Source of the DNA: Cenarchaeum sp.
GTDB lineage: Archaea; Thermoproteota; Nitrososphaeria; Nitrososphaerales; Nitrosopumilaceae
Length of the DNA: 64,000 nt
Assembly: GCA_963692915.1 (NCBI GenBank)
Contig: OY843584.1
Location: forward strand, 1,504,001 to 1,568,000
Direction: 5' to 3'
Of this stretch, positions 8,100 to 28,335 are shown piece by piece (position 1 is the first letter of the stretch; each line of letters opens with the position of its first letter). A program made the position numbers and the translations under genes. Under the pieces are notes generated by a model. The model searched no databases, was not told the DNA's origin, and saw only the letters and a program-made list of their open reading frames with translations.

Positions 8100-9146
8100 C
8101 TATGTCTGCGAGTCGGCCACTATGGCCCTGGCCATGACCGTCTCGGGCGCTATTCCCTGCTCGACGGCATACGCGATCGACGCGATATTCCTGACCTCGT
8201 ACGCCACGAGCTTTGTTATGGCAATTATCGTCGCAAGGCTGAACATCTTTGTGAACGCCCTGTTGCATGACGCGTACATTTCAAGCTCCATGGCCCGCTC
8301 AAAGCCGGCGACTGTGTCGAGGTCGGTGCCAGACTGTGGAACCATCGAGCCGTACCTAGTCGAGGCGACCTCTGATAGCGCGTCGCGGACCGATGCCGCA
8401 CCGGCCATGCGCTCCAGGGCCGCGCGCGGAACGCTCGGCGTCGAGCCGGCAGTCAGGTCCAGCGTTGCGGCCTCGTCCAGACCCCAGAGGCGGCCGCGCA
8501 GGACCGCCATGATATTGTAAAAGTCAACGTCGGCCCCGATCATGCGCGACACGTTGCGCTCGCGCGACTCTCGGGCCGCGCGCGCCAGCTCGATGTGCAT
8601 CGTCTTGTCGAGGTATGTGTCTATAGCCTGTATCTGCCCGCGCTCGCCATACAGCGCGACTGCGCGCGCAACCTCGTCACCAAGGCGCGTCCCGCGAAAG
8701 CTAGCGGCGGCCTCCTCGAGGTCCTTTGCGACTAGCGCCTTTACTAGCGTGTCGCGCTCGCGCGCCAGCTCGGCAGCGCGCATGTTTATGTGGCGCTCGA
8801 TCTCGTCTTGTGTCTTGCCGAGTGCCTTGCCCTTTAGGACCATCTTTAGGTTCCAGATGACGAGGCGGCGATAGTATGCGTCAAGAACACCCCTGTCGCC
8901 TGCCGCGCGCGCCATGGCGTGGTGCATCTCGGCGAGGTGCGCCCCGAGGGCCGCCTCGATCTGCGCTGCGCTGTGCGGGGCCTGCAAGTCTGCGACTGCC
9001 GGCCCATAGCGCGTGTTCTTTATCCTCGTGAGGAGCTCGTCCATGCCGCGTGACTCGGCGAGGGCCTGCAGGTCGGCGCGCGAGAGGAGCTTGCCCTTTT
9101 GCCCGTATGCCTTGACTGACGCGTATAGACGTGCTGCCTTGCCCAT
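8100..9146 (-). CDS. atpC: A/V-type ATP synthase subunit C
   Basis: YASVKAYGQKGKLL N-terminus, IWNLKMVLKGK, DFYNIMAVLRG, YEVRNI; start at ATG 9146. Confidence 0.9.
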   Translation of the reverse strand: MGKAARLYASVKAYGQKGKLLSRADLQALAESRGMDELLTRIKNTRYGPAVADLQAPHSAAQIEAALGAHLAEMHHAMARAAGDRGVLDAYYRRLVIWNLKMVLKGKALGKTQDEIERHINMRAAELARERDTLVKALVAKDLEEAAASFRGTRLGDEVARAVALYGERGQIQAIDTYLDKTMHIELARAARESRERNVSRMIGADVDFYNIMAVLRGRLWGLDEAATLDLTAGSTPSVPRAALERMAGAASVRDALSEVASTRYGSMVPQSGTDLDTVAGFERAMELEMYASCNRAFTKMFSLATIIAITKLVAYEVRNIASIAYAVEQGIAPETVMARAIVADSQT

Positions 9147-9201
9147 TATGGGCAAAGGGTTGGCATGTTGCGATTTTAATGTTGCCGTTGTGTCACGTGT
9201 G

Positions 9202-10293
9202 TGTTTTATACGAAAAGTAGTAGACTCACTCATTCGAGTCCACCTCCATCCACCTCGGGTTCTCCGCCCGGACCCGCCCGTCGGCCCTGCGCCTCCTGTA
9301 GGCCAGCAGGGGCGTCTCGCCGCCCTTGATGTCCAGGGCGAAGTGGAGGCGCCTCTCGTTGTAGTACGCGATGAACTCGGGGACCCCGCCAAAGTGGCCG
9401 ATCTCCGTCTCGAGCGTCTGGAAGAACCTCTCGACCTTGCCGTTGGTCTGGGGGTGGCGGACGCGCGCCATGAGGTGCGCTATGTCGCGGTCCAGCAGCT
9501 CCCGCTCGAAGAGCGTCGGCGTCCAGCTGCGGCTCGGCGTGCCGCGCCGGCTTGCCGTGAACTGCGTGCCGTGGTCCGAGAGGATCTGCGCCGGCGCGCC
9601 AAACATCCTGATCGCCTTTCGCAGCGCAAGCACGGAGTTTTCCGACGTGGCCTCGGCGAACACGCCAAAGCCCGTGACGCACCGCGACGCGTCGTCGAGG
9701 AACACTATGAGGTGCGAGCCCGCAAGTGGCCCGTATTTCATTATGTGCCAGTCCACGTGCCACAGCGCGCCGGAGTGCGCGCGCTCGAACCTGACCCACT
9801 TTCGCCTGCGCGACTTCGCCCGCGACCTCGTGACGAGCCCCTCCGCCAGCATGATGCGGTACACCGACCAGTACGTTATTTTTGAGTTGTTGCCGCGCAG
9901 CCCCTCGGCCACGCGCACGACGCCGGCCGGCCGGTCGGCGTGCTCGCCGAGGACCTCGGCCACCTCGCCGTCGGTGACGTCCCTGCGCGGCCTTCCCATC
10001 GGCCGCGGCTCCGGCGGCGCGCCGGTGCGCCGGCAGTGCGCGCGAAGCCTGTACGACCACGCCCTGGAGATCCCCAGCTCGCGCGCCACCTCCTCGGCGC
10101 TCCGCGTCGCCAGCGTCCTGGCCACGTACCGGAGCGCCCTGTCGTCAAGCCTCCTGACCGGCATGGCGCGCCGGCGGCGGAGCCCCCCAAACGTATGTTT
10201 CGGCAGCCTGCCGGATCCCGGGGCGCCCCCGGGGCTCCCGGATCTGCGCCCGGCAAGCATTCCTGCCCAGTCTACTACTTTTCGTACAAGGCA
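9202..10293 (-). mobile_element. IS481-family insertion sequence, 1092 bp, apparently intact
   Basis: 25-bp imperfect TIRs (TGTTTTATACGAAAAGTAGTAGACT / TGCCTTGTACGAAAAGTAGTAGACT); perfect 15-bp flanking duplication GTTGTGTCACGTGTG at 9187-9201 and 10294-10308. Confidence 0.93.
9226..10164 (-). CDS. IS481-family DDE transposase (integrase core)
   Basis: N-terminal HTH; WHVD / LSDHGTQF / PQTNGKVERF DDE triad. Confidence 0.92.
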   Translation of the reverse strand: MPVRRLDDRALRYVARTLATRSAEEVARELGISRAWSYRLRAHCRRTGAPPEPRPMGRPRRDVTDGEVAEVLGEHADRPAGVVRVAEGLRGNNSKITYWSVYRIMLAEGLVTRSRAKSRRRKWVRFERAHSGALWHVDWHIMKYGPLAGSHLIVFLDDASRCVTGFGVFAEATSENSVLALRKAIRMFGAPAQILSDHGTQFTASRRGTPSRSWTPTLFERELLDRDIAHLMARVRHPQTNGKVERFFQTLETEIGHFGGVPEFIAYYNERRLHFALDIKGGETPLLAYRRRRADGRVRAENPRWMEVDSNE

Positions 10294-10410
10294 GTTGTGT
10301 CACGTGTGTATGAGCTGCCTTGGGCAGTAATGGCCGGAACTCAGTGCGATCCACAGGAGATGAGCGTGCCTGAGACTCTGGGGTTCGCAGGGCGGACTGC
10401 CCCACGGCGT

Positions 10411-11616
10411 CTAGCCCCGGCTCTCTAGTATGTGTCTATATTCACGCGACTTGCGGGCCAGCTCTACGAGCAGATCCAAATTTTCGTCGCTAAGGCGCAG
10501 CCTGCATTCTGCATTATATGCTAGCACGAATCGCTTTAGTCTCCTCGTTCCATCCGGCAATGCGCTGTCATGAGGCGCTAGGAAAATTAGATCAGCGACG
10601 CTTTTTCCAACTGACAACGCTGCAAAGGTGCGCTTTGATGACCCCCCGCCATCGTCAAAATATAACCATGATTTTTTGACTGTGGTTACATTGAATCTAT
10701 CTTGTATCATTTTGGTCAATTTTATGACTCGTGCGCGTACCTCGGGGTTTGCCTTTGCAAGTGCGACTGACCATTTTTTGCTTGGCGGTTTACGAGTTCT
10801 TTTTCTTGTACCTCCTGTTTTCCCTCCTGATAGTTTTCTACCTCTTACTACAAAACCATTCACTTTGCTTATAATCACATCAGTTCTTTTTACAAGTGCG
10901 TCATAAGACTGTTTATCTCTTTTATCAATATCCGGCAAGTCGGCTGAACTATTAGTTGATTCCCATTCTCGTGATTTGGCAAATTTAATTAAATGATTTT
11001 CTAGATTTTTCCGCACGTTCATATCGCTAAATATTTCTTCAAACAATATTGCAATATGAGTGAATTTCTTATTTGCCCAATGCTTATTGATAATTCTTTT
11101 ATACGCACATTTTGTTTCTCCAACATAAGCTGTGTTGTCGTTTAGATTCATCAAAATATAGACGCCGGGCTTTTTTTCTGAATCAATTTGTTTTACTGCC
11201 ATGTTGAATATTTTTTTGTTTTTTTCACAAAAAACAAACAAAGTTGTGGGTTTCATTCCTCCGTAGATGTAGCTTCCTTCTGTTACGCTTTTTAAATCTT
11301 CCCAATAGGAGTAGCTAAATCCTTGATGGCTGCCCAATGTATCATGATAACTAAATGTGCCATGTCGACTATTCTGAGCAGGATGAGATGTTTTAACGCG
11401 TGTATTTAGACCATACACGCCTGGCCGTATGCGCTTAAACTTCTTCGGATTTCTATATACGTGGCTTGCTATGCTTGATCTAGGTTCTTTGTTACGGATG
11501 GGCGCAAGTCTTTTCTGTAATATTTTATTTGTGATCTCTGGGATACTCATGGGCTCATGCTCTGCCAAGACCTTTGCTATGGCGTCTATCTGTTTGAGCA
11601 CTTTTAACGTGCGCAC
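10411..11616 (-). CDS. HARE-HTH + GIY-YIG nuclease + C-terminal domain (DUF5655-like?)
   Basis: N-terminal winged HTH (PMSIPEI...PGVYGL); PGVYIL...AYVGET...R...H...LE GIY-YIG core; AT-rich. Confidence 0.75.
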   Translation of the reverse strand: MRTLKVLKQIDAIAKVLAEHEPMSIPEITNKILQKRLAPIRNKEPRSSIASHVYRNPKKFKRIRPGVYGLNTRVKTSHPAQNSRHGTFSYHDTLGSHQGFSYSYWEDLKSVTEGSYIYGGMKPTTLFVFCEKNKKIFNMAVKQIDSEKKPGVYILMNLNDNTAYVGETKCAYKRIINKHWANKKFTHIAILFEEIFSDMNVRKNLENHLIKFAKSREWESTNSSADLPDIDKRDKQSYDALVKRTDVIISKVNGFVVRGRKLSGGKTGGTRKRTRKPPSKKWSVALAKANPEVRARVIKLTKMIQDRFNVTTVKKSWLYFDDGGGSSKRTFAALSVGKSVADLIFLAPHDSALPDGTRRLKRFVLAYNAECRLRLSDENLDLLVELARKSREYRHILESRG

Positions 11617-11857
11617 TACTACCCCCGTGTTAATAAATATGCCTGTGCCGCAGACTGCCTCTGGTGACAGCTACGTTTGGCTGTAGTGTGAACAAGTCGG
11701 CCGAATCGTCCTAATTCTCTGAGATCACGTAACGCCGAACTCTGGGTCTAACCTGCAGTTGTGGCGTGTCCAAAAAATATCTGCTTCCAAGCGATCGTTT
11801 GCTGTTCATATGCAAAAGATGACAATTATTTGGGGAATATAGAAACATCAAAACACC

Positions 11858-12385
11858 TCATGCAGCATTGAGTTTTAATCGACCTGTCTTTTTCCATTGG
11901 ACAAATCTCGCGTTCTTCGAAAATGCTCGTGTTAGCTTCTTTGCGCAGCTATCGGCGGCGACTTGAGTGTTTTTGAGAGTGTCGATACTATAACACACTG
12001 GCTTTTCATAGTTCCCCGACACCCCCTCTGGGGTTATGGTATCTATGCAGTGTGCTAGACCATTTCGAACCTTCCTGATCTTCTTTAGAGATCGGTTAAT
12101 GCCGTAGATGCTGGTGTGATTTCCGACCGTGTTGTCTCTCTCCTTGGTGCTCATATTGCGCATCTTGGCTCTAATTTCATTTTGTGACACCTCGCTTATT
12201 TTCCCGCTTGTTTCTAGGGCGACAAACGTGAGATATTCGACCACCTTGTGATCTATGCGACTGACACTAAGCACTATGCCCATGGCGGCCTCTAGCGTCT
12301 CGCACTTGCCCTCACCGTACCTGTCGAGCGCACGTCTCTTGGATCTTGATCGCCTTTTCACGTTCGTGCCTTGCGCAACTCCCAC
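11858..12385 (-). CDS. Small HEPN-domain protein (putative RNase)
   Basis: Helical protein with RNGLAH (RxxxxH) motif; GTG start inferred from a TATA-like box at about 12410-12419. Confidence 0.55.
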   Translation of the reverse strand: MGVAQGTNVKRRSRSKRRALDRYGEGKCETLEAAMGIVLSVSRIDHKVVEYLTFVALETSGKISEVSQNEIRAKMRNMSTKERDNTVGNHTSIYGINRSLKKIRKVRNGLAHCIDTITPEGVSGNYEKPVCYSIDTLKNTQVAADSCAKKLTRAFSKNARFVQWKKTGRLKLNAA

Positions 12386-12706
12386 GAGCAACTTACCGAC
12401 CTGTAAGTAGTTAAATTTTACGGATCGCAGGCAATAGCACCGTGATCGCAGTGTTTTGGGATCGCGCTTGCTCTCTTGCGCATGCACTGCATGCACTACG
12501 TGTATTGTGCCCCCGGCGCCTCGTTACCCACGCGTGCTTGGCTCGTAGAGGCTTGGCGACGTCTACAGAAAAACTTATAACATAATCTCTAGTATATGCG
12601 TGATGATGAAATGTCATGCGGCGCGGCGCTTCGCGATAGCAGGCCGGGACAAGGATCAACGAAATGATGGTCTGCCTCTGCGGGAATTCTTGGGAGGCTG
12701 TTCCTA

Positions 12707-13990
12707 ATGTGGGACTATTGGCTTGATGAGCCGCCGGGCGAGTGCGATTCGGAGTGCGGGCCAAAGTGTGCCTCGCCCATACACCGGACATATGCTGCAT
12801 ACATGGCGCCACAGCCAGTCCTGGAGCCGCTGAATGGCCTAGACGCCACACTCGTCCGCATGTTCGACCTCCGCATTGCGCTCGACTTTCTCCTGAACGA
12901 CATGACCAACCTCGCATGGAGCTCGTCTGACAAGAGTCATTACCTGATAAGGTCGAGGCTTCAGTACATGGCCCTTGACTTTCACACATTTGGTGACATG
13001 GCCGACGGCCTAGTTGAGCAGCTCGACGAGGCTAGACGAAACTCGATCTCGCCCCTCCTCCCCGTCTTGCAGAGGGTGCACGAGCTCGCATCTGGGATGC
13101 CAGATATGCGCCGCAAGGTTGTGCGTCCGGGTACTGGGCTGTTTGGAGACGTAAAGCGGCTCAACGGCAACGAGTACGTGCCCCCATTCGCCGACGAAGA
13201 GTCGTTTCTTGTGTGCGCAAACCTGGCACTCACGTTCATTGACGGACTCTTGTACACGATTCCAGACATATTCTGCTCGGCGTTATCCAAGATCTCGCCC
13301 AACGGCTCTACGGTCAGTCCGTGTGACCATGACTCGATTTCAAAAGAGTCGTCCTCGTATATGCAAAAAAATCCCATACGCTGTGTTGACTTTGACCGGA
13401 TGGGCAAAGACGCGCCACGTGTGGCCACAGAGCTTATCAGGGTCAGGTGGGCACTGCGGTCAGCCCTTGACAGGCACAACTTGGCGTGCATTGACATTGC
13501 GCTTCCAAACCGCATGTCGCGGCTGTGGAACATGCTCTTGCGCCCAAAGCTGATGCTTTGCACAAAGCAGATCATAATAGAGCTCCACACGCTTCTTGCC
13601 CTATATGACACGATGCGCAGCGCGGGCTGCACGCCATCTATGGATGACGCCATTGTCGGGGACTTGCTAAAACATAGAAACGCAATCGCGCGCCTACGGA
13701 ACACAGCAGTCAGCTGGGACGATGCTGCGGACTATGAGCCGTTCTTTGACCTGATCGAGCGCGAGATTGGCCACGAGAGGCTGATCCTTCTTGCGTCTGT
13801 GGCCCACGAGTGGATCCTGGCAAACTCCAACCACTATCAGGAGAAATGCGCCGGATATGCGCTGGTGCCAGACCTGCCCAACATAACTAGGCGCATCGAC
13901 TTTTTGGAGGCTGCGCGCAAGGCCTCATTCTACCGCGTAAAGGCCAAAAATGCGCTCGAGCGCCTCAAGATTCCTGCGATGGTCAACTAG
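12707..13990 (+). CDS. Hypothetical all-helical protein
   Basis: 427-aa ORF with TATA-like sequence upstream; no firm family assignment. Confidence 0.6.
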   Translation: MWDYWLDEPPGECDSECGPKCASPIHRTYAAYMAPQPVLEPLNGLDATLVRMFDLRIALDFLLNDMTNLAWSSSDKSHYLIRSRLQYMALDFHTFGDMADGLVEQLDEARRNSISPLLPVLQRVHELASGMPDMRRKVVRPGTGLFGDVKRLNGNEYVPPFADEESFLVCANLALTFIDGLLYTIPDIFCSALSKISPNGSTVSPCDHDSISKESSSYMQKNPIRCVDFDRMGKDAPRVATELIRVRWALRSALDRHNLACIDIALPNRMSRLWNMLLRPKLMLCTKQIIIELHTLLALYDTMRSAGCTPSMDDAIVGDLLKHRNAIARLRNTAVSWDDAADYEPFFDLIEREIGHERLILLASVAHEWILANSNHYQEKCAGYALVPDLPNITRRIDFLEAARKASFYRVKAKNALERLKIPAMVN

Positions 13991-14055
13991 CGGCCGGGGT
14001 CGCCACGCCCGCATAACGACATGACTTTTTAGCCACTGCGGCCACACGCGCCACC

Positions 14056-16599
14056 GTGATCGCGCGATGGCTGTGCATTCTCCCCGTGGCAGTCGCCGTC
14101 ATGCTGCTCACCGTTACTCCCTTGGAGGCTGACGCCGAGTCCACCAGCATTCGACTTGATCCCGTCCCACGACTCGTAGCCGGCGAATATGCGACATTTA
14201 CTGGCTCGCTCGTGGACTCGTCAGGCCGACCCGTGGCCGGTGCCGAGATTGACATAAAGGATGACGACTTTGGGCCAGATGACTATATCGCAACCGTTCG
14301 CACCGGCTCGGATGGCCGCTTTTCAGCCAGGGTTGTCGTGAAAGACTGGGATGAGTGGGGAGGCGCGACTGACATTTACGCAGTCTTTGAGGGCGCAGGC
14401 GGGTTTTCAAAGTCGCGTAGCGCAACGCAGGAGGCATACGTGAGTTCACGCGGCGCCGGAGGATCGTCCGGAGGCTCACCATCTGGGGGATACTATTTGG
14501 GCGGCTCGCCTCCTGACACATACACACCTGCTGCAAAGTCATCCACTGGCCTCACGCTACGTTTTAGTGCCAATTCTGTGTATGCTGGCGAGACGATCAC
14601 GTTCTCCGGCCAGCTCACGTCCGGAGGTCGGTCACTCTCAGGGGCGACGATCCACATCAAAGAGGACGATCCCGCATGGCGTGATGAGTTCCTTGCAACC
14701 ACCACAACTGACTCGCAAGGGCGCTATTCTGTGACCTGGCGCGCGTCTGCTGCGACATTTGAGACTGACTTTGACGTGTATGCCGTCTTTGAGGGCTCGT
14801 CAGACTATTTGCGCTCGACGTCATACCAGTACACGCTTCCTGTCCTAAAGCGCTCGGGCACGATCACACTAGATACGCTGCCGCGCAGCGTCCACATTGG
14901 TGATCTAGTAACCTTTTCGGGCAACTTGCGCATTCCAGGAGTGGATACAACGAACATACTGGTGTATATAATGGACGAGGACTTTGCCAATCCAGACGAT
15001 CTCCTAGCGACCGCATACGTGGAACGTGACGGAAGCTATTCGGTCAGCTGGGTCGCACGCAAGGTAGACTCTGACAATGTTGCAGACATTTACGCAGTCT
15101 TTGAAGGTGATGCTACGCACTACCGCTTGACGACGTGCGATGACGGACCCACGCGTTCCTTTGGCGGGTGGTGCTTAGACACGGTAAAGCTCTCGATCCT
15201 TGCAGAGCGGCCACGCGTGGAGCCTGACCCGCCGGGAGGCCAATACATGGAACTGACCTATGTGCTCGACTTTATGTCTAGGCCTACAGTTGCCATATCG
15301 CCAAGTCGCGACTCGTATGACGCTGTTCGCCACCACATAATTCCTACCAGGGAAGGCCTCGAGACGCTCTCCTCGGAGCTTTCCGCACGCCATGGAGGCG
15401 ACTGGCTCCTTAACTATGAGGTTCTCGAGAAAGGCAAGTGGAGGGCTAACTCAAGGGCTGACGTTGTGGTCAACCTCATCACGGGTTATGATGACGACTA
15501 TTGCAATGACGTGCTTGGGTGGGCTCCGGGCGTTCGCGAGTCGCGCCCAATCCAGGTATACGTCTGCTCCACGTCGGGGCAGACGACGCATTCCAACGCA
15601 GAGGTTATGCTGACTGCCACGCACGAGTTTATTCATGCGATTGGGTTGGGTCATGTATTTAACAAGAAAAACGACATGATGTGCAGCGTCGAGGACGGCG
15701 TGCCTACATGCCCTCCCTCATACAACGAGGAACCCAGACCATCGAGCTTAGTGCTAGACGCAATCGCCGAGGTATATGGGCGCGATGGTTTTGTCGTTCC
15801 CAACAAAGGTGTCACTAACACGTATTTTGCGATATGGGACGGGCGCACCTCCCCGACCACGCAGGGTGGGACACAGGCGGTTCCGACTATGCGGGGTCTT
15901 GCTGACGGTGGTCGACTTGTACTTGAGACGGTACCCACACGCACGTTCTCCGAGCACGCCTCGTATGTTGAGAGCTTTGGATATTTTGGTCCCGAGCTTG
16001 AGTTCCTGAACGACACGTTCATCCTGCCCCACGATATTACCGTGAGCCTGCGGGAGTGCGGTGGGACGACCTCTTCGTATGACCGAGCATCGAGGACGAT
16101 TCTCATATGCTACGAACGCGTGGCCGACTATGTGGATGTCACATACGAGCTAGATTTTGACGTTGATGATAGCTATGTGTATATATTCAACAATGTCGAC
16201 TTTGAGCTGTACCGCGGCCTTGCCTATGCGCTATCTCACGTGCACGATCTGCCGACTTTTGGATATGGTGTCCACATGGCGGACAGCTTTGCTGCATATG
16301 CCATGCTCACGTTTTACGATGATCCGGCCTTTGGTCAGGACATAGTGTACGACGCGTCCACGCAGCTGTATGCACAAAGCGAGTATGGCACAGGCAACAC
16401 TGCATCACATGCACACGACCTCGAGCGATTTCACAGGATCACGTGCTATGCGTACGGACAGGACACAGAGTCCAACGCGTACCTTGTGACCGAGGGGTGG
16501 CTCCCCGAAAATATCAGCAGATCCTGCTCCTTGACGTATGCTACGATGGTCGATATATGGGACACTGCGCTGTCAGGATACATGCACGGCGTCTACTGA
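14056..16599 (+). CDS. Secreted protein: 3 Ig-like repeats + metzincin zinc protease + DUF4344-like domain
   Basis: Signal peptide; three repeats ending DIYAVFEG/DVYAVFEG; HEFIHAIGLGH with Met-turn; C-terminal ADSFA...ERFHRITCYAYG. Confidence 0.8.
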   Translation: MIARWLCILPVAVAVMLLTVTPLEADAESTSIRLDPVPRLVAGEYATFTGSLVDSSGRPVAGAEIDIKDDDFGPDDYIATVRTGSDGRFSARVVVKDWDEWGGATDIYAVFEGAGGFSKSRSATQEAYVSSRGAGGSSGGSPSGGYYLGGSPPDTYTPAAKSSTGLTLRFSANSVYAGETITFSGQLTSGGRSLSGATIHIKEDDPAWRDEFLATTTTDSQGRYSVTWRASAATFETDFDVYAVFEGSSDYLRSTSYQYTLPVLKRSGTITLDTLPRSVHIGDLVTFSGNLRIPGVDTTNILVYIMDEDFANPDDLLATAYVERDGSYSVSWVARKVDSDNVADIYAVFEGDATHYRLTTCDDGPTRSFGGWCLDTVKLSILAERPRVEPDPPGGQYMELTYVLDFMSRPTVAISPSRDSYDAVRHHIIPTREGLETLSSELSARHGGDWLLNYEVLEKGKWRANSRADVVVNLITGYDDDYCNDVLGWAPGVRESRPIQVYVCSTSGQTTHSNAEVMLTATHEFIHAIGLGHVFNKKNDMMCSVEDGVPTCPPSYNEEPRPSSLVLDAIAEVYGRDGFVVPNKGVTNTYFAIWDGRTSPTTQGGTQAVPTMRGLADGGRLVLETVPTRTFSEHASYVESFGYFGPELEFLNDTFILPHDITVSLRECGGTTSSYDRASRTILICYERVADYVDVTYELDFDVDDSYVYIFNNVDFELYRGLAYALSHVHDLPTFGYGVHMADSFAAYAMLTFYDDPAFGQDIVYDASTQLYAQSEYGTGNTASHAHDLERFHRITCYAYGQDTESNAYLVTEGWLPENISRSCSLTYATMVDIWDTALSGYMHGVY

Positions 16600-16670
16600 A
16601 CGTAGTGCATCCGGCGTCAGGAACATCGTCACAATGCCTCCTAATCTACCCATACGTGGCTATACAAAGC

Positions 16671-17495: not shown

Positions 17496-17638
17496 GTTTG
17501 TGTATCAGCTATGAAGATCTTTCGTGTATAGCTGTTGATAAGCAAAATATTGTTTGACCCTAATGTTAAGAGGCACGACTTGAACACAAAGTGTTTGATC
17601 GAATGAGGAATGAAAGTCAGGACAGATTTCATGGGTCT

Positions 17639-17659
17639 GGGGGGGGGGGGGGGGGGGGG
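17639..17659. repeat. G21 homopolymer
   Basis: 21 consecutive G in intergenic DNA, directly before ATATAAG. Confidence 0.9.
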
Positions 17660-21100: not shown

Positions 21101-21520
21101 TTAAATGAATGGGATTGCATTGACAATCAAAATCAAAAATTACTATCTCAAAAAAACGAATTGTATGGGCCGGGCCAAACGAAAATTTCTATGTCCAAAT
21201 TACAAAAACGTTTACTGGTTGCTATCCATGATGTACAATCGTACGGCCCCTCTCTTCACCCCAGTATAGATTTGTCCTTAGTTGAGAAACTTGAAAGCTG
21301 GCTAAAACGAACACCAATTCGATCAAATCACGCAGATCAGTTTGAACAGATTGTGGGCATGTCTATCGAACAACTATTTCAGTGTGACACTGAGAAATTA
21401 ATCTGCGTAATAGATCTGTTCAAAAAACAACTTTGTTTAAAACATCCTTCATATGACCGTTCTATTCCCAAACGTGGTGATATTCGTGCCCACATTGTAT
21501 GTCGAGGTGCTTTTATCTAA
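18149..21520 (+). CDS. PLD nuclease-SNF2 helicase fusion (defence/RM-associated)
   Basis: FHAKAY...GSSNFT (HxK PLD); DAVGLGKT, DEAH, TATP, SEGVNLQ, QRLGRVDRIG; very AT-rich. Confidence 0.9.
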   Translation: MTSSRLIDNKNIHFHKKFTEYCNDSTSIKIATGYFYVGAFNIMYDDIMKVINHPSADLNRPRITIIMGIETDQPTAAALQSGYAEKKLRNTIKHYLINDLNNSFINWDKNTLEKISSLIANNDIQIKIYSKGKFHAKAYLFEGTEPRSSVAIVGSSNFTPPGLGLKSMHDGNVELNLVTQDSFSEIHDWFENVLSDSEEFNNDLLTILKTSQPWINLIQNDRNFVSPTTLFLIMAAKILNDELPVDYQENDTLTEFQKIGVISADRKIENLNGVLISDAVGLGKTYIAIELIKLRGMDNTLLIVPASLKNNWSEELLHNNVRSHVEILSIQDLSRLQNHKIEKYQNYEFIIIDEAHRLRHSARNHYKNLQKITDSGPSKQFALLTATPINNSIIDLKNLINIFIHDADLLTLDPSLEMSAFDDYNKLHNKILQGLVTHNEPAYDALETIKKILAEVMVLRTRSNIASRYPVIEIDGFEYKFPPPPPRINPIECVYPLTYLNIHDAITQLFKDLELPHVRAANPSSPAFIGLYLSHIFKRLESSIHSFFCSLENLRLAETTFKDNIKKHGLKKAIEHQWCDDSTSNNKIIVEHLDNEGFEHDEFPNIDASDVRLVIIDKNNDQSTLTQSRVLEAIDADLTRISDFFQKYTNSVRSNEFCYPDDPKIIELIKIIKKYTNVKILIFSQYIDTVEYIYENLKPIFTKVDWIVGSPTLNQQTTSHPRNVKIGMFAPIANNYNGDDIQILVASDTISEGVNLQDCSLIINYDLPWNPTRLIQRLGRVDRIGSTDQTLAINLLPDAVFTTTLDLLQRVAGKIKIQASVIGLENPLLTQFDPVNQRTIGELPIQEIDVSLEKLRHTKQYGDYEKVTQHTLLDLAEKPDSSQQALDLRRLISNLGLNQKFNQIKLNTESITCPYTIIDTNKKKQFAFALYVHQHRSKNKLVPFVIISNNGDTQVLDKYEILDLYKYDNAIPLHSVPLDLRSYLLNEWDCIDNQNQKLLSQKNELYGPGQTKISMSKLQKRLLVAIHDVQSYGPSLHPSIDLSLVEKLESWLKRTPIRSNHADQFEQIVGMSIEQLFQCDTEKLICVIDLFKKQLCLKHPSYDRSIPKRGDIRAHIVCRGAFI
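19591..19605 (+). repeat. In-frame C15 homopolymer in helicase gene
   Basis: tt(C15)gcga encodes FPPPPPR. Confidence 0.9.
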
Positions 21521-24340
21521 TGTTACCATTTACAAATATGTCACAAATTAAATCTTATTTTTCAGATTTAGGTTTTCGTGTTAAATCTCATAATAAAATC
21601 ACCAATCATGCTGCGTTGGTCGTTGATATCGATCTTCATAATGGTTTTATTATTGTGAAATCATGTTATGATGGCAATAAATTCATTGATGAATCTGCCA
21701 TACTTCGACATCTTGGTCGTGATATTCGATATTTGATGATTATTGATACTGATGTGGGCGCTGGAATGTTTGTAAAGCATACACTTGGAAGTACTGGACA
21801 TATTAAATTTCAAAAATATCGCTTCAATAAAAATTCTCGAACAGCTGCCACTCTAATTGGCGCGTTAAAACCAGAGACGTTCTATTCATTTGAAGATTTA
21901 TTTAATACTGAAAAAATTGTTGCAAATTTTTATTCCAAATACACAAAACATCTTTCTAATCTTGTTGATAGTCTTGAAGGTATTTCTAATGCTGACGATA
22001 AAAAACATTACGCAGATGTAATAATGTCTCGTCTAATGTTTATTCAGTTTTTACAAACACGTAATTTTTTTCAAAACAAGCATTTTCTTCTCAATAAATT
22101 TGCTGAAATCAATCATTCAAATGAGTCTTATTATAAATTTCTCCGTATGCTGTTTTTTGATATTTTAAATAAACCTAAGACACAACGACCTCAAAACCTG
22201 ACTGAATATTCCAACATTGCATTTCTTAATGGGGGTTTATTTAAAGTTCATTCGCTTGAACACAATTACTCAAAAATTAATATTCCCAATCAGATTATTT
22301 TTGAACTTCTGACTTTTTTAAAAGATTATACATGGTATGTTGATGAAACTAATGTTTTTAGTGACGGGATCAACCCGGAAATTCTCGGCCATATATTTGA
22401 AAAAACTATCAACGACCAAAAACAAAAAGGTGCGTTTTATACACCTGTTGATGTCACTCAATTTATTTGTGACCACACAATTATTTCGTATTGTATCGAA
22501 CAGCTCAATATAAAATTTAGTACTAATTATGAATTACATAAGAATTCCATCAATGAAATTTGTCAAAATTTTGACCAAGCACACTATTTGTATTTCAAAA
22601 TTCTTAAACCCCTGACTATCCTTGATAATGCTTGTGGTTCGGGCGCTTTCCTTCTTACTGCATTTGGACTTTTGCTTAATTTGTATGAATACCTCTGGAA
22701 ATCCATTTGTAATTCTACCGACGCTTCTGTTCAATCTGAATTTAGATTCATTAATAAATATTCTTCTGTTCACTATTATTTTCGCCGGCGTATCGTAACT
22801 GAAAATCTTTTTGGTGTTGATGTTGATGAAGGTGCTATTGAGGTTTGTCGTTTACGTCTTTGGCTTGGCCTTGTAGCTGATATGGATGTCGAAAACCCTG
22901 AACCATTGCCTAATATTGATTATAACATTCTTCTTGGAAACAGCTTGTTAGGGTTTGTCAATTCTCAACCTCTCCAATCTGACCTCATTTCTAATATTCC
23001 CACAAAAAAAGATTACAAACAAATTGTCACACTTAAGAAATTATACAATAATACGTCTGATCCACAACGCGCAAGCTCGATCAAAAATCGTCTTGATCCA
23101 CTTATCACTACATGCCGTGAACAGCTAAATGCTGCTCTTTACATGGTTAAAAAAAAAATATATTGTACCCCAGCATGATTATCAACCATTTCATTGGTTG
23201 TTAGAATTCTCTGACATTATTCATGAAAACCAAGGATTTGATATTATTGTTGGCAATCCGCCATATGTTGAAAAAGCTAAGGTTAATTACTGCCTTCAAT
23301 TTCAATTACTTAGCTGTGGCAGCACATATGCTTATTTTATTGAACGATCATTAAGTTTGCTTAAACCTCATGGAAAACTTGGTTATATTGTTCCTATTTC
23401 TGGCGTCTCCACACCTCGTATGAGTCCCCTAGTTGAACACATGATGTCTAAATGTTCTAACATTTCTATTAGTAATTATGATGATCGTCCCAGTAAGATT
23501 TTTATGGGTCTACAAGACTGCCGCTCTAGCATTTTTATTTGTACGGTGTCTCCGCCACCTCCTGCATCGCCCACTACATCTACGTGTACTGTACACACAA
23601 CTGGTTATACACGTTGGAACAACATTGATCGTCCAAATTTATTTGTAAACATAATTAAACAGTCAATAGATTCATCACAATTTGTGTTAGATCCGCGTTT
23701 AGGTAAAATTATACCCAAACTAGCAAATCAACAAGAAATAAAAATTCTAAATAAATTATTGGCAAAATCTTCTTCTATTGCTCAATATGTCAGGAAAAAC
23801 ACCCAAAGTCAACCTGACGATTGTTATCCTGTTTATTATCATAACACTCCTAGATATTGGATTCATGCTACTGCCTCTGAGATCAAATCAGAACGTATTA
23901 TAGGTGATGAACATAGATTTGAATTATCTGCTCAGCTAAAATCACTTTATTGTGATAGCGCAAATATCAAAATCGTAATTGTCGCTCTTTTGAATAGCTC
24001 ATTATTTTACTGGTGGTATGTTAAAATTTCTGATGGGCGACATTTAACTGATTTAAACATAAAACAATTTCCTATCGATATTAATTCTATAATCCAAAAT
24101 AAAACTATGTTTAACAAACTATCGCAACTTGTTCCCCGTTTACTTACTGACTATAAGAATCACATCCGTTATCAAAAATATGATCGTGAAGGTGGGATGC
24201 TAATAATCCCAGAATACCGTCCTCGTCACAGCAAACACATAATAGATAAAATTGATGATCTTTTTGGTTCTCATTATAATTTTACAGCATCTGAGCGCAC
24301 GTTCATCAAACAATTTGATGTTGCTTTTCGGTGCTCATGA
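21520..24340 (+). pseudogene. Eco57I/TaqI-like N6-adenine DNA methyltransferase, frameshifted at A10 (23149-23158)
   Basis: ORF1 (to 23178) has FLNGGLF, GAFYTP, DNACGSGAF and LPNID; ORF2 (to 24340) has FHW..EF, GFDIIVGNPPY and a TRD-like tail; removing one A fuses them; TAATG coupling to the helicase. Confidence 0.85.
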
Positions 24341-24528
24341 TCGCCCTCTAATGTTGTTTAAACTACTATTTTAGTTGCTAGTCGATTATCTGAATTCTAA
24401 TTATTGCTGTTTTACCCAAAAATGGACTCCGGGTCTTCCGTACATTTTGGTTCTCCACCCTTTGTGCGTCATGGGAAGTCGCACTCCGATGATCGCGCAC
24501 AACACCGTGCGCACTAAACCTCCCCCCA

Positions 24529-25767
24529 CTACCTCCGCACTACCCCAATCCGCCTCCCAATCTCGTCCTGCGCCCTTTGCGCCTCGGGCATCCTCTTGAG
24601 GGCCTCCTCGGCCTCACCAAGGCGGCCCAGCGCAATTAGCGCACCGCCCATTCCCAGGTGGCCGGCGACGATGTCAGGATCCAGCTCGACTGTACGCTCG
24701 TATGCGCCCAGGGCCTCCACGTTGCGCCCAAGCAGGGTGAGGGCCAGGCCATGGTTGATGTGCGCCCTGGGGTTCTCGGGGTTTATGCGAATCGCCACGC
24801 TCGCGCTCTTGATGGCCTCCTCGGCCCTGTCCATCGCGTTGAGGATCATTGCGCGATCAGAGTGCCCATCATCATTGTCGCCGTCCAGCTCGATCGCGCG
24901 CTCTGTGACCTCTAGCGCCTCGGCGTTGCGCCCAAGGCCAAAGAGGGCACGCCCGAGATAGATGTGCAAGTTGTACTCTCTGGGCTCCAGCTCGATCGCG
25001 CGCCTGTACTCCTCGACTGCCTCCTCGCTCTGACCGCGCAAGCGCAGCGCCGTCCCCTTCCTCGAGTGTACACTCGCGTCTCCCTGGCCAAGCTCGATCG
25101 CGCGATCAAGGGCATCGATGGCCTCCTCACAGCGGCCGGACTCGAGGAGGATCATGCCCCTGCAGCTGTGCGCCTCGGCGGCGTTTTCGTGTTTTGCGAT
25201 AAACGTGTCTAGTCCTGCCAGTGCCTCCTCGCTGCGTCCGGCCCTGTGCAGCGCCTCGGCGTGACACTTGTGCGCCAGCGCCGAGTCGGGCGTCATGGCC
25301 ACCGCCTTGCCTGCTGCGGCCACTGACTCTTCATGGCGCCCCGCTCCTGCCAGGATGATCGACTGCACATCGAGCGCAAAGTTGTCATCATGCTCTAGGT
25401 CCACTGCGCGGCTCACCGTGGCCAGTGCCTCCTCGTGGCGCCCAAGCGCGCAGAGCGCCAACGAACGGAGCGTGTGCGCCCTGGCAGAGTCGGCACTCGC
25501 CCTCACGGCACGCTCGGCCACCTCCATGCCATCATTGGGCCGCCCCGCCTTGAGATGGGCCATGCCGAGCCTGAACATAGAGTCAATGTCCCCAGAGTCA
25601 AGCTCGATTGCCCTCTTCCAGTACGCCATGGCATCCTCGTCACGGTTCAGCGCGCATAGGGCGTAGCCCATGCGCCTTTGTGCGACTGCGTCATCAGGCC
25701 TCTCGCGCACCGCCCGCTCGCACTCCTCTAGTGTCATCGGCATGGCCTCCTCGCTCCCCGAGCCCAT
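24529..25767 (-). CDS. TPR repeat protein (array paralog 1)
   Basis: About 11 TPRs; MGSGSEE..MTLEECERAVRERPDDA leader. Confidence 0.88.
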   Translation of the reverse strand: MGSGSEEAMPMTLEECERAVRERPDDAVAQRRMGYALCALNRDEDAMAYWKRAIELDSGDIDSMFRLGMAHLKAGRPNDGMEVAERAVRASADSARAHTLRSLALCALGRHEEALATVSRAVDLEHDDNFALDVQSIILAGAGRHEESVAAAGKAVAMTPDSALAHKCHAEALHRAGRSEEALAGLDTFIAKHENAAEAHSCRGMILLESGRCEEAIDALDRAIELGQGDASVHSRKGTALRLRGQSEEAVEEYRRAIELEPREYNLHIYLGRALFGLGRNAEALEVTERAIELDGDNDDGHSDRAMILNAMDRAEEAIKSASVAIRINPENPRAHINHGLALTLLGRNVEALGAYERTVELDPDIVAGHLGMGGALIALGRLGEAEEALKRMPEAQRAQDEIGRRIGVVRR

Positions 25768-25782
25768 GTCCCAGGCTGTCAC

Positions 25783-25814
25783 GGGGCTGCTCCTATAATT
25801 TTTGTCCTGCAATC
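25783..25814 (-). promoter_or_regulatory. Duplicated TPR promoter module, copy 1
   Basis: GCAGGACAAAAATTATAGGAGCAG; near-identical copies at about 27216-27247 and 29485-29516. Confidence 0.75.
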
Positions 25815-25994
25815 AGGCCCTGTCCACAAATGATCCCTCGATTCATGCTGACATCTCTCAAACCGCTCAAGACTGCGCAGGGCTCTCGCCCGAGGACGCT
25901 GTGGGCCATGCGCCTGCCCTGCGCAACATCCGGCCGCGCTGTGCGCCCCAAATCTCCCCTGCCAGAACCCCGCCATCCCAAAGCGCCCTCGCGC

Positions 25995-27200
25995 CTAGTC
26001 CTGCTCCTTTTGCGCCTCGGCCGCCCTCTTGAATGCCTCCTTGGCCTCTGCATGGCGACCCAGCACGGCCAGCGTCTCGGCCCTCCCATCGTGGCCGATG
26101 TCCATATCTGGCCCCAGCTCGACTGCGCGTTCATAGGCGCCCAGGGCCTCCTCGTTGCGCCCAAGCAGGGAGAGGGCCATGCCGTGGCAGATATGCGCCA
26201 CAATGTTCCTCGGGTTTATGCGAATCGCCACCTTGGCACTCTTGACTGCCTCGTCGGCCCTGTCCAGCCTGTTTAGAGTCTCCGCGAGATCGCTGTGCCC
26301 CTCATCACGGTTGCCGTCCAGCTCGATTGCGCGTTCTGTTGCCTCGAGCGCCTCGGTGTAGCGCTTTAGGCGAAGGAGGGCGCGCCCGAGATAGAGGCGC
26401 AACTTGTACTCTTTGGGATCAATCTCGATTCCGCGCCTGCACGCCTCGGCTGCCTCCTCGTGCCGACCGCATCCGAACAGCGCAATCCCCATCATCAAGT
26501 GAACCTTCGAGCCTCCCTGACCACACTCGATCGCGCGATCAAGGGCGTCGATGGCCTCCTCGGAACGTCCGCTCTCAAAGAGGACAGTGCTCCTGTAGCA
26601 GTGTGACTCGGCGTCGTCTCCGTCTGCTGCGATGAGCGCGTCGAGCTCGGCTAGCGCCTCCTCGCTGCGGCCGATCCCGTGCAGCGCCTTGGCGCGATGC
26701 ATGTGCGCTGATGCCGAGTCAGGATTCAGCTTCACCGCCTTGTCTGCTGCGTCCACCGCCTCGTCCCTGCGCCCCAAGCCCACCAGGATAACTGACTTTA
26801 ACTCGTGTGATATGCTATCGTCAGGATTGAGCTCGACTGCGCGATTCACCGCCGCCAGTGCCTCCTCGAAGCGCCCAAGCGAGCCGAGCGCCAACGAACG
26901 GAGCCAGTGCGCCTTGGACGAATCAGCCCTTACGCCAATCGCGCGCTCGGCCGCCTCTAGGCCATCATTGTGCCGCCCTGCCTTGAGATGTGCAATACAG
27001 AGGTTGACTAGCGAATCAAAGCCCACGGGATCGAGCTCGACTGCCCTTTGCAAGTACGCCAGCGCCTCCTCGACGCGACCCAGACTGGTCAGCGCGTCAC
27101 CCATGCGCCTCTGCGCGACTGCGTCATCGGGCATCTCGCGAACCGCCCGCTCGCACTCCTCTAGTGTCATCGGCGTGGCCTCCTCGCTCCCCGAGCCCAT
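25995..27200 (-). CDS. TPR repeat protein (array paralog 2)
   Basis: About 11 TPRs, clearly paralogous to 24529-25767; start at ATG 27200. Confidence 0.88.
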   Translation of the reverse strand: MGSGSEEATPMTLEECERAVREMPDDAVAQRRMGDALTSLGRVEEALAYLQRAVELDPVGFDSLVNLCIAHLKAGRHNDGLEAAERAIGVRADSSKAHWLRSLALGSLGRFEEALAAVNRAVELNPDDSISHELKSVILVGLGRRDEAVDAADKAVKLNPDSASAHMHRAKALHGIGRSEEALAELDALIAADGDDAESHCYRSTVLFESGRSEEAIDALDRAIECGQGGSKVHLMMGIALFGCGRHEEAAEACRRGIEIDPKEYKLRLYLGRALLRLKRYTEALEATERAIELDGNRDEGHSDLAETLNRLDRADEAVKSAKVAIRINPRNIVAHICHGMALSLLGRNEEALGAYERAVELGPDMDIGHDGRAETLAVLGRHAEAKEAFKRAAEAQKEQD

Positions 27201-27215
27201 GTCCCGGGCTGCCAC

Positions 27216-27247
27216 GGGACTGCTCCTATAATTTTTGTCCCGCAATT
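27216..27247 (-). promoter_or_regulatory. Duplicated TPR promoter module, copy 2
   Basis: GCGGGACAAAAATTATAGGAGCAG about 27 bp upstream of the ATG. Confidence 0.75.
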
Positions 27248-27255
27248 GGGCACTG

Positions 27256-28023
27256 TGTTTTATACGAATAGTAGACTCACTCATTCGAGTCCTCCTCCAC
27301 CCACCCCGGGTTCTCGGCCCTGACCCGCTCGTCGGCTCTCCGCCTCCTGAAGGCCAGCAGGGGCGTCTCGCCAGTCTCCATGTCGAGGGCAAAGTGGAGC
27401 CTCTCCTCGTTATAGTACCCGATGAACTCGGCGATCCCGCCAAAGTGGTCGATCTCCTCCTCGAGCGTCTGAAAGAACCTTCTGGCCTTGCCGCTGGTCC
27501 GGGAGTGGCCGGCGCGCGACATGACGTGCGATATTCCGGCATCGCGCAGCTCCCGCTCAAAGAGCGTCGGCGCCTGGCCGCGGCGCGGCGTGCCTCGCCG
27601 GCTCGCCGTGAACTGCTTCCCGTGGTCTGAGAGGACCTGCGCCGGCGCGCCAAACCTCCCGATCGCGTGGTGCAGCACGAGTACCGTGTTGCCCTCCGTG
27701 GCCTCGGAAAAGACGCCAAACCCCGTCACGCACCTCGACGCGTCATCAAGGTACGCGACGAGGTGCGAGCCCGCAAGCGGCCCATATTTCATTACGTGCC
27801 AGCCCACGTGCCACATCGCATTAGAGTACTTTCGCTCAAAGCGAACCCACTTGCGCTTCTGCGGCCTTGCCCCCGAGCCCTTGGCTGTGCCATCCGCTGG
27901 CAACATGTGACACGCCGCGCCGTGCGCTATTTTTGCGTTGTTGCGCCGCACGCGCATGACTGGGCGAACCGCGCCGACGGGGCTGCGCGGGTGCCCGCCG
28001 AGAGCCTCGTCGAGCTGCGTCAT
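27256..28023 (-). mobile_element. Degenerate IS481 copy (truncated, catalytically dead transposase 27277-28023)
   Basis: TIR TGTTTTATACGAA---TAGTAGACT at 27256; homologous to 9202-10293; WHVD changed to WHVG and GKVER to GKARR; N-terminal HTH and second TIR not found. Confidence 0.85.
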
Positions 28024-28092: not shown

Positions 28093-28260
28093 TTAACGCC
28101 GCGCTCCTCCCACAGATCGACCCATTCTTCGACCTGCCCTGCCTTTAGCTCCACGTTCATCTCCCTCCCTAGCTCCCTGGAATGCATAGCCCAGGTCGAC
28201 TCGCGCCCCGGCGTCATCGGGTCTATTGCGAACAGCCCGTTCACACTCTTCTAGCGTCAT
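28093..28260 (-). pseudogene. Truncated TPR paralog remnant
   Basis: Reads MTLEECERAVRNRPDDAGARVDLGYAF, the same leader as its neighbours, then loses similarity and stops. Confidence 0.65.
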
Positions 28261-28335
28261 CGGCGCGCCGCCCTCGCTCTCCGGGCCTGCCGTGCCGCGC
28301 TCACCGCGTCCCCCTGATGTGATAGTTTCCTGTTT

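Follow-up and report, generated by a model that had tools for sequence, protein, structure and literature searches.

The window analysed here, a stretch of 64,000 nucleotides from Cenarchaeum sp., holds two copies of an IS481-like insertion sequence, ISa, each lying 56 bp from the start codon of a gene. The terminal inverted repeat (TIR) begins at 9202 where the A of the atpC ATG is at 9146, and at 27256 where the ATG of a TPR gene is at 27200. What places a mobile element at the same distance from two genes? A sequence-only reading had proposed guidance by the promoter from these two cases, and the distances it gave are exact. The features concerned are the following.

9202..10293, minus strand: ISa copy 1, IS481-like, 1092 bp (blastn against the genome, and sequence)
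9202..9225: left-end TIR of copy 1, on the transposase 3' side, facing atpC (sequence)
10270..10293: right-end TIR of copy 1, on the transposase 5' side, with 3 mismatches to the left TIR
9226..10260, minus strand: transposase ORF of copy 1, 344 aa, with rve integrase core (Pfam and curated family models)
9187..9201: target-site duplication, 15 bp, promoter side, covering -41 to -55 relative to the atpC ATG (sequence)
10294..10308: target-site duplication, 15 bp, distal (sequence)
9173..9184, minus strand: predicted TATA-like box (9173-9180) of the atpC promoter, with an A-rich BRE-like position just upstream at 9182-9184 (from sequence)
8100..9146, minus strand: atpC, A/V-type ATP synthase subunit C (AC39), 348 aa (Pfam PF01992, E 5e-56)
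27256..28009, minus strand: ISa copy 2, IS481-like, truncated and diverged remnant, 754 bp (blastn, sequence)
27241..27255: presumed target window beside copy 2, 15 bp, its duplication uncheckable with the other end lost (sequence)
27227..27236, minus strand: predicted TATA-like box of the TPR-gene promoter (sequence)
25995..27200, minus strand: TPR-repeat protein gene, 401 aa counted from the ATG at 27200 (Pfam TPR families)

Copy 1 is one of seven identical copies in the genome (blastn) and is flanked by a perfect duplication (9187-9201 and 10294-10308), which bears out the 15-bp target window proposed for it. For copy 2 the same window stays presumptive: this remnant aligns to element positions 1-757 at 78.6% identity, has an indel within its TIR and lacks its right end. 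The same-genus genome G001 has an orthologous remnant, and copy 2 is therefore old. The TATA-like boxes are intact at -27 to -35 in both promoters (9173-9181 and 27227-27236), as had been described, and at atpC the TATA and BRE are undisturbed by the insertion and agree in register with the generic promoter profile of the genome.

The single 344-aa ORF fills the element, and Pfam confirms the retroviral-integrase-like core attributed to it (PF00665 rve, 46.9 bits, cut-off 32.6). Internal Met33 appears the likelier start of the transposase than the ORF start, judging by the point at which the alignments of relatives set in. The best curated family is the IS481 model NF033577, with 166.6 bits against 69 bits for IS3; since this score is under the model's cut-off of 224, ISa is best named IS481-like. 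Its left end begins TGTTTT and its right end TGCCTT, with TGTATT or TCTATT in relatives, which is counted as agreement with the TGT ends of IS481. The target duplication is 15 bp in the copies of this genome that have matching flanks. Among 80 related loci in other Nitrosopumilaceae genomes (transposases 45-51% identical), 61 are bounded by duplications of 13-17 bp, mostly 15 or 16, with exactly 15 bp in 35 of the 80 and 13-17 bp (mostly 16) in 26 more. According to one article, duplications in the IS481 family range from 2 to 15 bp and are mostly 6 bp, so that 15 bp, the length in archaeal members, is unusual (PMC10045372). ISa fits this range, but the 16-bp cases among its relatives are 1 bp over.

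A blastn search finds 12 copies of ISa in this genome, and in 10 of them a TATA-preceded ATG lies 53-56 nt beyond one end, equivalent to 54-57 as measured in the sequence-only reading. The sharp peak near -56 that this reading expected once all copies were mapped is therefore present. Scoring required an ATG that starts an ORF of 60 aa or more and has a TATA-like 8-mer 24-36 nt before it, with promoters and leaderless starts inferred from sequence profiles and our own crude gene calls. Such an ATG occurs at that offset for 0.64% of random positions and 1.5% of intergenic positions, rates under which 10 of 12 has a probability of about 4e-17 to 8e-21. A TATA-like 8-mer starts 17-23 nt from one end in all 12 copies (null 9%), and the same spacing is found in 8 of 15 solo right-end remnants of ISa. 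The reference point for insertion is the promoter and not the start codon, because copy K, whose gene has a longer leader, retains its TATA at offset 20 with the ATG at 66, and because a fragment of a second element, X, precedes tRNA-Ala by 51 nt and has a TATA-like box at an offset of about 18. Copy L has neither a duplication nor a clear gene. Either element end may face the gene: the shared orientation and gene-facing end reported for the two window copies hold for that pair but not generally, since seven of the 12 copies turn the other end to the promoter; the split is 7 versus 5 in this genome and 30 versus 27 in other genera.

Genes behind the struck promoters include amoA, AC39, PcrB, GDH, a TFB paralog and the ribosomal proteins P1, S30e, S3Ae, L3 and L1. 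An empty site is preserved in a same-genus genome, whose amoA promoter has the 15 bp once and no IS. The P1 promoter has been struck three times (an old ISa, then X, then ISa), at the pcrB promoter different IS variants have inserted in two species, at points 1 nt from each other, and paralogous promoters have been struck with different duplications. These repeated, independent hits count against the explanation that insertion is random or weakly biased and that purifying selection in a compact genome leaves only the copies upstream of promoters. The genome is indeed gene-dense (about 83% under crude ORF calls), only fixed copies are seen, and no ISa copy with a recognisable duplication was found inside a recognised gene; this last result also favours promoter guidance, against which the sequence-only reading had listed frequent intragenic insertion. 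Selection on random insertions does not account for 10 of 12 copies against an intergenic-only null of 1.5% per site, for a register held within ±2 nt, or for the choice of one position at sites A, B, E and I, where pre-insertion spacers of about 120-170 nt left tens of positions free. As the sole cause it is strongly disfavoured, and we give it hardly any weight.

When 20 sites are aligned by their junctions, none of the 15 duplicated positions carries more than 0.38 bit; there is no plain sequence consensus of the kind that had been named as counting against promoter guidance. Conservation is confined to the promoter itself, whose A-rich BRE and TATA keep a fixed register: positions 17-19 (AAA) and 22-29 (TATA) of the same sites carry 0.6-1.4 bit, and the leave-one-out register is within ±2 nt in 18 of the 20. 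The same profile, A-rich at -38 to -35 and TATA at -31 to -25, is found in 78 unoccupied promoters. The midpoint between the two staggered cuts lies about 47 nt before the predicted leaderless start codon and some 14 nt before the first T of the TATA, directly past the BRE. ISa cuts 15 bp apart (-54 to -40) and X 8 bp apart (about -50 to -43).

Element X is assigned to the IS66 family (NF033517, 216 bits, cut-off 180), with PF03050 over its cut-off in two copies. It shares with that family the DDE_Tnp_IS66 domain, inverted repeats beginning GTA and an 8-bp target duplication, the latter seen in both full copies of this genome and in relatives elsewhere. Canonical IS66 elements carry accessory tnpA and tnpB genes, whereas the coding strand of the 1.5-kb X has one long ORF of 481 aa and neither accessory gene; single-ORF IS66 relatives exist. 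A TATA-like box lies 13-21 nt away at 15 of 28 X ends. X sits 4 nt nearer to the TATA than ISa, with a register shift of -3 to -5 in 12 of 15 cases where a shared cut centre predicts -3.5; the two unrelated elements therefore have their target centre in common, some 47 nt before the start codon. Of 7 full X-clade copies, drawn from four genomes, 6 have scores that no null position reaches. In contrast to the fixed promoter-upstream site of the X clade, a distant IS66 clade within this archaeal family does no better than the null (1 of 9 below 0.05), although as an inhabitant of other, larger genomes it is an imperfect control for selection. Its freedom from promoters is a further point against random insertion followed by selection.

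That two unrelated families share one spot would suit any transposase that needs accessible or underwound DNA. Insertion might then follow chromatin or transcription state: immediately upstream of the initiation complex, active transcription would leave a stretch that is free of histones or otherwise exposed and negatively supercoiled, and elements would enter at its edge. A histone-fold protein is encoded in the genome, and many highly expressed genes are among the targets. A precision of ±1-2 nt relative to the TATA is nevertheless finer than accessibility or supercoiling alone predicts, and the distant IS66 clade lacks the pattern in related hosts (1 of 9), which together make this an improbable account.

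A stronger competitor is direct read-out of the DNA. The BRE and TATA form a sequence motif at fixed distance, and each transposase might respond to that motif or to its inherent shape on naked DNA: the transposase or transpososome would recognise the A-rich BRE and TATA, or the bend or flexibility of an AT-rich island in GC-rich DNA, and cut at a fixed distance with no host protein. The sole conserved feature of the sites is such a motif in fixed register, a matrix derived from that motif also works in other genomes, struck sites resemble good-consensus promoters, and for some hits (copy L, solo 499677 and solo 509955) the TATA-like box alongside has no ORF of 50-60 aa or longer. Moreover, a common protein tether for two unrelated transposases would demand convergent evolution, an extra assumption here, though such convergence is known for eukaryotic elements. 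Against direct read-out, two unrelated transposases with unrelated ends and different staggers share a cut centre within about 1 nt, and the terminal repeats of ISa and X are unlike the BRE/TATA motif. Insertions always lie on the BRE side of the quasi-symmetric TATA, which selection could also cause, and strongly expressed genes are frequent among the targets, though their motifs are also good. On balance we regard direct read-out as unlikely, if a serious contender.

The pattern extends well beyond the two copies from which it was proposed, to the 12 genome copies and to 57 of the bounded related loci that lie outside the genus of the window, many of them drawn from the same few genomes. With a scoring matrix trained only on the present genome, 38 of these 57 exceed the 95th percentile of a same-flank null and 23 exceed the 99th, while 19, about a third, fall below the 95% mark. 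Starts of ATG-ORFs around the 57 insertions peak at offsets 49-57, with 24 counts there and about 1.3 per 3-nt bin at other offsets, which agrees with the peak in the window's own genome. Two relatives at 36-37% identity show similar placement by eye; some copies in G001 and G010 are off register or ambiguous. The pattern is precise to 1-2 nt across dozens of independent insertions in a dozen or more thaumarchaeal genomes. The sites observed are those of survivors, and selection must have removed harmful insertions and so sharpened any preference.

The best explanation overall, and in our judgement a probable one by a modest measure, is that the promoter guides target choice, most likely as a complex bound by TBP and TFB. 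ISa and X would pick their integration site by the archaeal core promoter rather than by the sequence that is duplicated, and the promoter would be recognised in its sharply bent, TBP/TFB-bound form. Either the transpososome may contact TFB or TBP, or the bent complex may offer, upstream of the BRE, the first free DNA, with a favourable shape. In archaea this would be the equivalent of the insertion that TFIIIB guides for yeast Ty3 and Dictyostelium TRE5-A. Because the target is duplicated, the gene retains its native sequence to about -54; BRE, TATA and start are left intact, so that even amoA, ATP synthase and ribosomal-protein genes can bear an insertion in front of them. The geometry, its precision, its recurrence in many genomes and the missing target consensus are observed, while the part played by TBP/TFB and a 'safe site' benefit are inferred. 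A more specific proposal is tentative and falls short of probable: the transpososomes of two unrelated archaeal IS families would dock physically on the promoter with its bound TBP and TFB and insert the element upstream of the BRE by one helical turn, so that initiation-factor-guided integration, as by Ty3 and TRE5-A at TFIIIB, would also occur in archaea and at all promoter classes. A candidate docking motif would be a short C-terminal tail, W-M-E-x-D, which lies beyond the end of the IS481 model and is invariant in this transposase clade.

If promoter guidance is correct, it is a clear-cut instance of convergent 'safe-site' targeting among prokaryotes and accounts for elements before amoA, ATP-synthase and ribosomal-protein genes without death of the host. 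It would also give a handle on archaeal TBP/TFB-DNA architecture in organisms that can be neither grown nor engineered, and a computational marker, at no cost, by which promoters and start codons could be located in genomes of Nitrosopumilaceae. Tethering of an rve-type transposase by TFB or TBP would become directly testable and, were docking true, IS junctions could mark active promoters in uncultured archaea.

That the initiation machinery guides target choice is textbook knowledge for eukaryotic retroelements in compact genomes. A full-text literature search returned no description of such targeting for archaeal insertion sequences. The archaeal IS481 members ISMac4 and ISA0963-1 resemble ISa in having a single rve-type transposase, TGT ends and a 15-bp duplication, and differ in that the ISa transposase is under the curated IS481 cut-off; the article that covers them does not contain the word 'promoter' (PMC10045372). 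As in integration of the Ty3 and TRE5-A type, ISa shows no sequence requirement at the insertion point and is confined to a few-nucleotide window at a fixed distance from the core promoter. The integrase of yeast Ty3, an LTR retrotransposon, is guided by TFIIIB (TBP and the TFB homologue Brf1) at Pol III start sites, and like ISa, Ty3 has an rve-type core, a few-nucleotide window set by the initiation complex (in ISa, probably) rather than by target sequence, and a target gene that stays functional (10.1101/2021.07.27.453949, PMC6673722). Protein contact is proven for Ty3 and would be a proposal for ISa and X; Ty3 is a eukaryotic retroelement acting at the Pol III start site, and the present elements are archaeal DNA transposons inserting about 47 nt before the start, at promoters of both protein and tRNA genes. 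TRE5-A of Dictyostelium differs in its target-primed reverse transcription, its restriction to Pol III genes and its eukaryotic host. This non-LTR retrotransposon nevertheless inserts about 50 bp upstream of tRNA genes via TFIIIC/TFIIIB and, like ISa and X, does so just past the footprint of the TBP/TFB homologues, a placement interpreted as a 'safe site' strategy where genes are densely packed (PMC3159450, PMC9012585, PMC5006619, PMC6101501).

The window carries two copies of an IS481-like element, ISa, whose surroundings are as follows (window coordinates).

9202-10293: ISa copy 1, 1092 bp, with imperfect 24-nt terminal inverted repeats
9187-9201 and 10294-10308: perfect 15-bp direct duplication on both sides of copy 1
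9226-10260, minus strand: transposase ORF of copy 1, 344 aa, with an rve integrase core
8100-9146, minus strand: atpC (AC39 match, E 5e-56)
27256-28009: ISa copy 2, a 78.6%-identical remnant without the right part (blastn)
25995-27200: TPR gene, whose ATG is 56 bp from the left end of copy 2
9173-9181 and 27227-27236: TATA-like boxes beside the two copies

The best curated family for the ISa transposase is IS481, at 166.6 bits, under the model cut-off of 224. In copy 1 the left end and the A of the atpC start codon are 56 bp apart, and the coordinates and arithmetic by which the sequence-only reading placed both window copies 56 bp from an ATG are correct. An exact search for the terminal repeats (three mismatches or fewer) recovers just both ends of copy 1, as an indel hides copy 2 from it. 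On the far side of the truncation in copy 2, window 28200-28270 resembles 27125-27195, the 5' part of the TPR gene, and a second TPR paralog (28336-29526, minus strand) adjoins this sequence; copy 2 seems to have been truncated by a rearrangement between the TPR paralogs. When the window is compared with locus L209 of G001, a genome of the same genus, homology upstream of atpC ends at 9187, the promoter-side limit of the 15-bp target window, which points to a rearrangement associated with an IS at that position in one lineage. For window 8600-10900, the contigs from four DNA runs give ISa a summed depth about 8-40 times that of its flanks. None of these contigs bridges an empty atpC site, and several loose contig ends at the ISa right end carry other flanks (four runs, contigs only).

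The window's own genome (G000) is a single contig of 1.64 Mb and 59.4% G+C that contains the window, and its host is identified as an ammonia-oxidising thaumarchaeon because archaeal AmoA is present. Blastn finds 12 ISa copies in this genome (seven identical and full-length, one at 95%, two at 84% and two partial), together with about 15 solo right-end remnants. For 10 of the 12 copies, the ATG of an ORF of at least 60 aa lies 53-56 nt from one end of the element and is preceded by a TATA-like 8-mer, defined as at least 7/8 A/T and placed 24-36 nt before the ATG. The sharp distance peak that the earlier reading had expected from mapping all copies is therefore seen, at 54-57 in its metric (offset plus 1). 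The genes behind these 10 sites are amoA and those for a LarC-type nickel-insertion protein, ribosomal proteins P1 and S30e, a collagen-repeat protein, two paralogous 85-aa proteins, PcrB, the AC39 subunit (atpC) and the TPR protein. Of the two exceptions, copy K has its TATA at the usual offset of 20 and the ATG at 66, and copy L has a TATA-like box at 22, with neither a duplication nor a clear gene. A TATA-like box begins at 21-23 in eight of the 15 solo right ends, and six of the eight also have an ATG/GTG start at 52-53. Two pieces counted as 'solo' are miniature copies that have lost internal sequence but keep both ends; a single internal break point shared by all solo right ends was rejected, given these two and BLAST limits that range over 893-1048. 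The end facing the promoter is the transposase-5' end in seven copies and the opposite end in five, and other genera are split 30 vs 27, so the common orientation that had been read into the two window copies is a coincidence. The region at about 1339000-1394000 of the G000 genome is crowded with repeats, remnants of IS, miniature copies and small paralogous genes (families of 85 aa and ~270 aa); several of these genes bear an element at the same promoter position.

The strict pattern, a TATA-preceded ATG at 52-57 nt, is found at 0.64% of random positions and at 1.5% of intergenic positions taken from our own rough gene calls, compared with the 10 of 12 observed (binomial tails ~8e-21 and ~4e-17, respectively). 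A TATA-like box starts 17-23 nt from either end in all 12 copies, compared with 9% of random and 23% of intergenic positions. The ORF-based gene caller, which returned 1384 genes and overlooked some (e.g. pcrB), served only for these nulls and for neighbourhoods. The insertions seen are fixed ones only, and several loci come from the same genomes; selection alone is a very improbable source of the pattern, and the pre-insertion spacers at sites A, B, E and I of G000, about 120-170 nt long, leave tens of alternative positions free. G000 yields no match to the control families TnpB-type (PF07282) and DDE_Tnp_1 (PF01609), and its self-BLAST reveals no other multi-copy IS beyond those described here; the control was therefore taken from distant IS66 relatives in other genomes.

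When 20 sites are aligned on the junction, each of the 15 duplicated positions carries at most 0.38 bit. The A-rich positions 17-19 and the TATA-like positions 22-29 hold the information instead, at 0.6-1.4 bit apiece, and a leave-one-out register falls within ±2 nt at 18 of the 20 sites. Upstream of unambiguous ATG starts in G000, A/T content is highest at -31..-26, and 78 unoccupied TATA-bearing promoters are enriched in A at -38..-35 and in T/A at -31..-25. The motif beside ISa is thus predicted to be the ordinary promoter of this genome, and most G000 mRNAs look leaderless because this profile sits at -38..-25 before ATG starts. In promoter coordinates the ISa duplication covers -54..-40, immediately upstream of the BRE. 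The target centre is fixed to BRE/TATA, with no demand on the duplicated sequence and in either orientation. Direct read-out of the BRE/TATA DNA by the element would place its specificity in these same informative positions and is a possible, though rather doubtful, explanation. A TATA motif carried by the element itself was rejected, as the motif lies outside the duplication, on a single side that may be either one, and is present at the empty orthologous site. The amoA promoter of G001 is uninterrupted and has the 15 bp in single copy; this empty site proves that the element at amoA in G000 is an insertion with a 15-bp duplication.

At three ISa sites a second repeat, X, ends precisely at the far edge of the ISa duplication. 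X is an unrelated 1.5-kb element of the IS66 family (NF033517, 216 bits vs a cut-off of 180; PF03050 matches two copies), with ends that begin GTATGAGG and with 8-bp duplications. Its main copies are listed below (G000 genome coordinates).

508130-509673 (~4104-5647 of locus L003) and 405121-406649: full copies of X, with a single 481-aa ORF and ends GTATGAGGTCAGC...
45866-46007: miniature X of ~140 bp with both ends kept

Besides the one miniature, which lies between two divergent TATA-preceded ORFs with their ATGs 48 and 40 nt from its ends, about 25 solo X ends are scattered over G000, many immediately before promoters. A TATA-like box starts 13-21 nt from 15 of 28 X ends, typically with a start codon at 47-51, and for two more X left ends nothing but an ISa copy that inserted later stands between end and promoter. 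Among the genes behind X ends are those for ribosomal proteins S3Ae, L3 and L1, a TFB paralog and tRNA-Ala. One X fragment lies 51 nt before tRNA-Ala(TGC); this case and copy K indicate from their sequences that the ruler is the promoter and not the start codon. Of the three TFB (TFIIB-repeat) genes, one has a solo X end (526506-526558) 51 nt before its start, so that a transposon remnant sits at the promoter of a basal transcription factor. As placed with the ISa matrix, 12 of 15 X ends are 3-5 nt nearer the TATA than ISa ends, most often by 4 nt. Symmetric cutting around one point predicts a shift of (15-8)/2 = 3.5, so ISa and X have a common target centre, which lies about 47 nt before the start and about 14 nt upstream of the TATA.

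The same promoters can be hit repeatedly. From the outside inward, the P1 promoter carries an old ISa end (offset 56 with X removed), X (51) and the current ISa (55). The pile-up before the P1 gene (G000 genome 507027-510174, locus L003) consists in order of the current ISa, X, and two old ISa right-end remnants with an internal ISa fragment, the same spot having been struck at least three times. At the pcrB promoter, G000 and G001 each carry an ISa variant of their own (the 100% and the 76% form); the two junctions differ by 1 nt and the duplications are not the same. Two paralogous promoters likewise bear different variants with different duplications.

In G001, 30 ends from 26 copies or fragments include seven with the strict pattern and two more with an ATG at 53 and a weaker box; some of its ISa sites have orthologues among the G000 sites. 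A scan in which each species was represented by one genome yielded 307 relatives, and the best 80 loci are from records titled Nitrosopumilus, Nitrosopumilaceae, Cenarchaeum and Thaumarchaeota and one contig labelled Dehalococcoidia. Duplications and inverted repeats define boundaries for 61 of these 80 loci, with duplications of exactly 15 bp in 35 and of 13-17 bp, mostly 16, in 26. The counts leave out the 19 loci without boundaries, several diverged copies and a spurious automatic boundary at locus L205, and exclusion of four bounded same-genus loci gives 57 insertions, with transposases 45-51% identical to that of the window. These were scored using a matrix trained on G000 alone, against a null in which the statistic is taken at other offsets within those flanks; 38 of the 57 exceed the 95th percentile and 23 the 99th. 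With a fixed register and 15-bp loci only, 25/32 and 15/32 do so. Offsets 49-57 hold a peak of 24 ATG-ORF starts, compared with ~1.3 per 3-nt bin at other offsets. Judged by eye, two relatives with 36-37% identity have the same layout, and in a further genome, G010, the box stands at the expected offset in two of three identical copies. For X, six of seven full copies with the same end sequence, from four genomes, beat every null position, as does one of two copies in a sister group. The promoter is intact after insertion, and the pattern recurs across genomes and in two families. The distant IS66 clade, which has other ends and 31-34% identity and comes from related genomes of larger size, does not rise above the null (1/9 below 0.05), so promoter association appears to belong to particular transposase clades and not to every IS surviving in these archaea. 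Locus L150, a 31-kb contig titled Dehalococcoidia bacterium, holds an ISa relative whose duplication is 15 bp long and beside which a canonical BRE/TATA of archaeal type stands in the usual register; the contig may be archaeal and have been binned with a bacterium.

Alignments of the ISa transposase with its relatives begin no earlier than residues 12-37 of the 344-aa ORF. An internal ATG (Met33; window 10164, minus strand) has a weak A/T-rich stretch about 25-36 nt upstream, and the true start may be this internal, leaderless one. Past the end of the IS481 model, a C-terminal W-M-E-x-D tail is invariant in 6/6 aligned transposases from four genera.

9226-9303, minus strand: residues ~319-344 of the transposase, with invariant R331, W337, M338, E339 and D341

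This tail is a candidate docking motif. Folding the transposase together with TBP and the TFB core gave a score of 0.01 against a mark of 0.34, in a run without controls, a value that counts neither for nor against binding.

G000 has two TBP genes, three TFB genes and one histone-fold gene, the last of which bears on a chromatin or supercoiling boundary as the guide for insertion, an unlikely explanation. The geometry of the sites somewhat favours recognition of the promoter as a bent complex bound by TBP/TFB. The element would read this complex and integrate into the first free DNA upstream of the BRE, which would provide a harmless site in a dense genome.

Openly readable full text yielded no account of promoter-directed insertion by an archaeal IS, and the word 'promoter' is absent from the accessible portions of PMC10045372 and of a thaumarchaeal mobile-element survey (PMC6563490). 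Within that open literature, the precise, promoter-referenced choice of target is new and previously undescribed; the IS families themselves are already known. According to PMC10045372, ISMac4 and ISA0963-1 are archaeal IS481-like elements that make 15-bp duplications, and ISa groups with them. In behaviour, ISa and X are like Ty3 (bioRxiv 10.1101/2021.07.27.453949, PMC6673722). In their distance upstream they resemble Dictyostelium TRE5-A, which is directed by TFIIIB/TFIIIC to sites about 50 bp ahead of tRNA genes (PMC3159450, PMC9012585, PMC5006619, PMC6101501).
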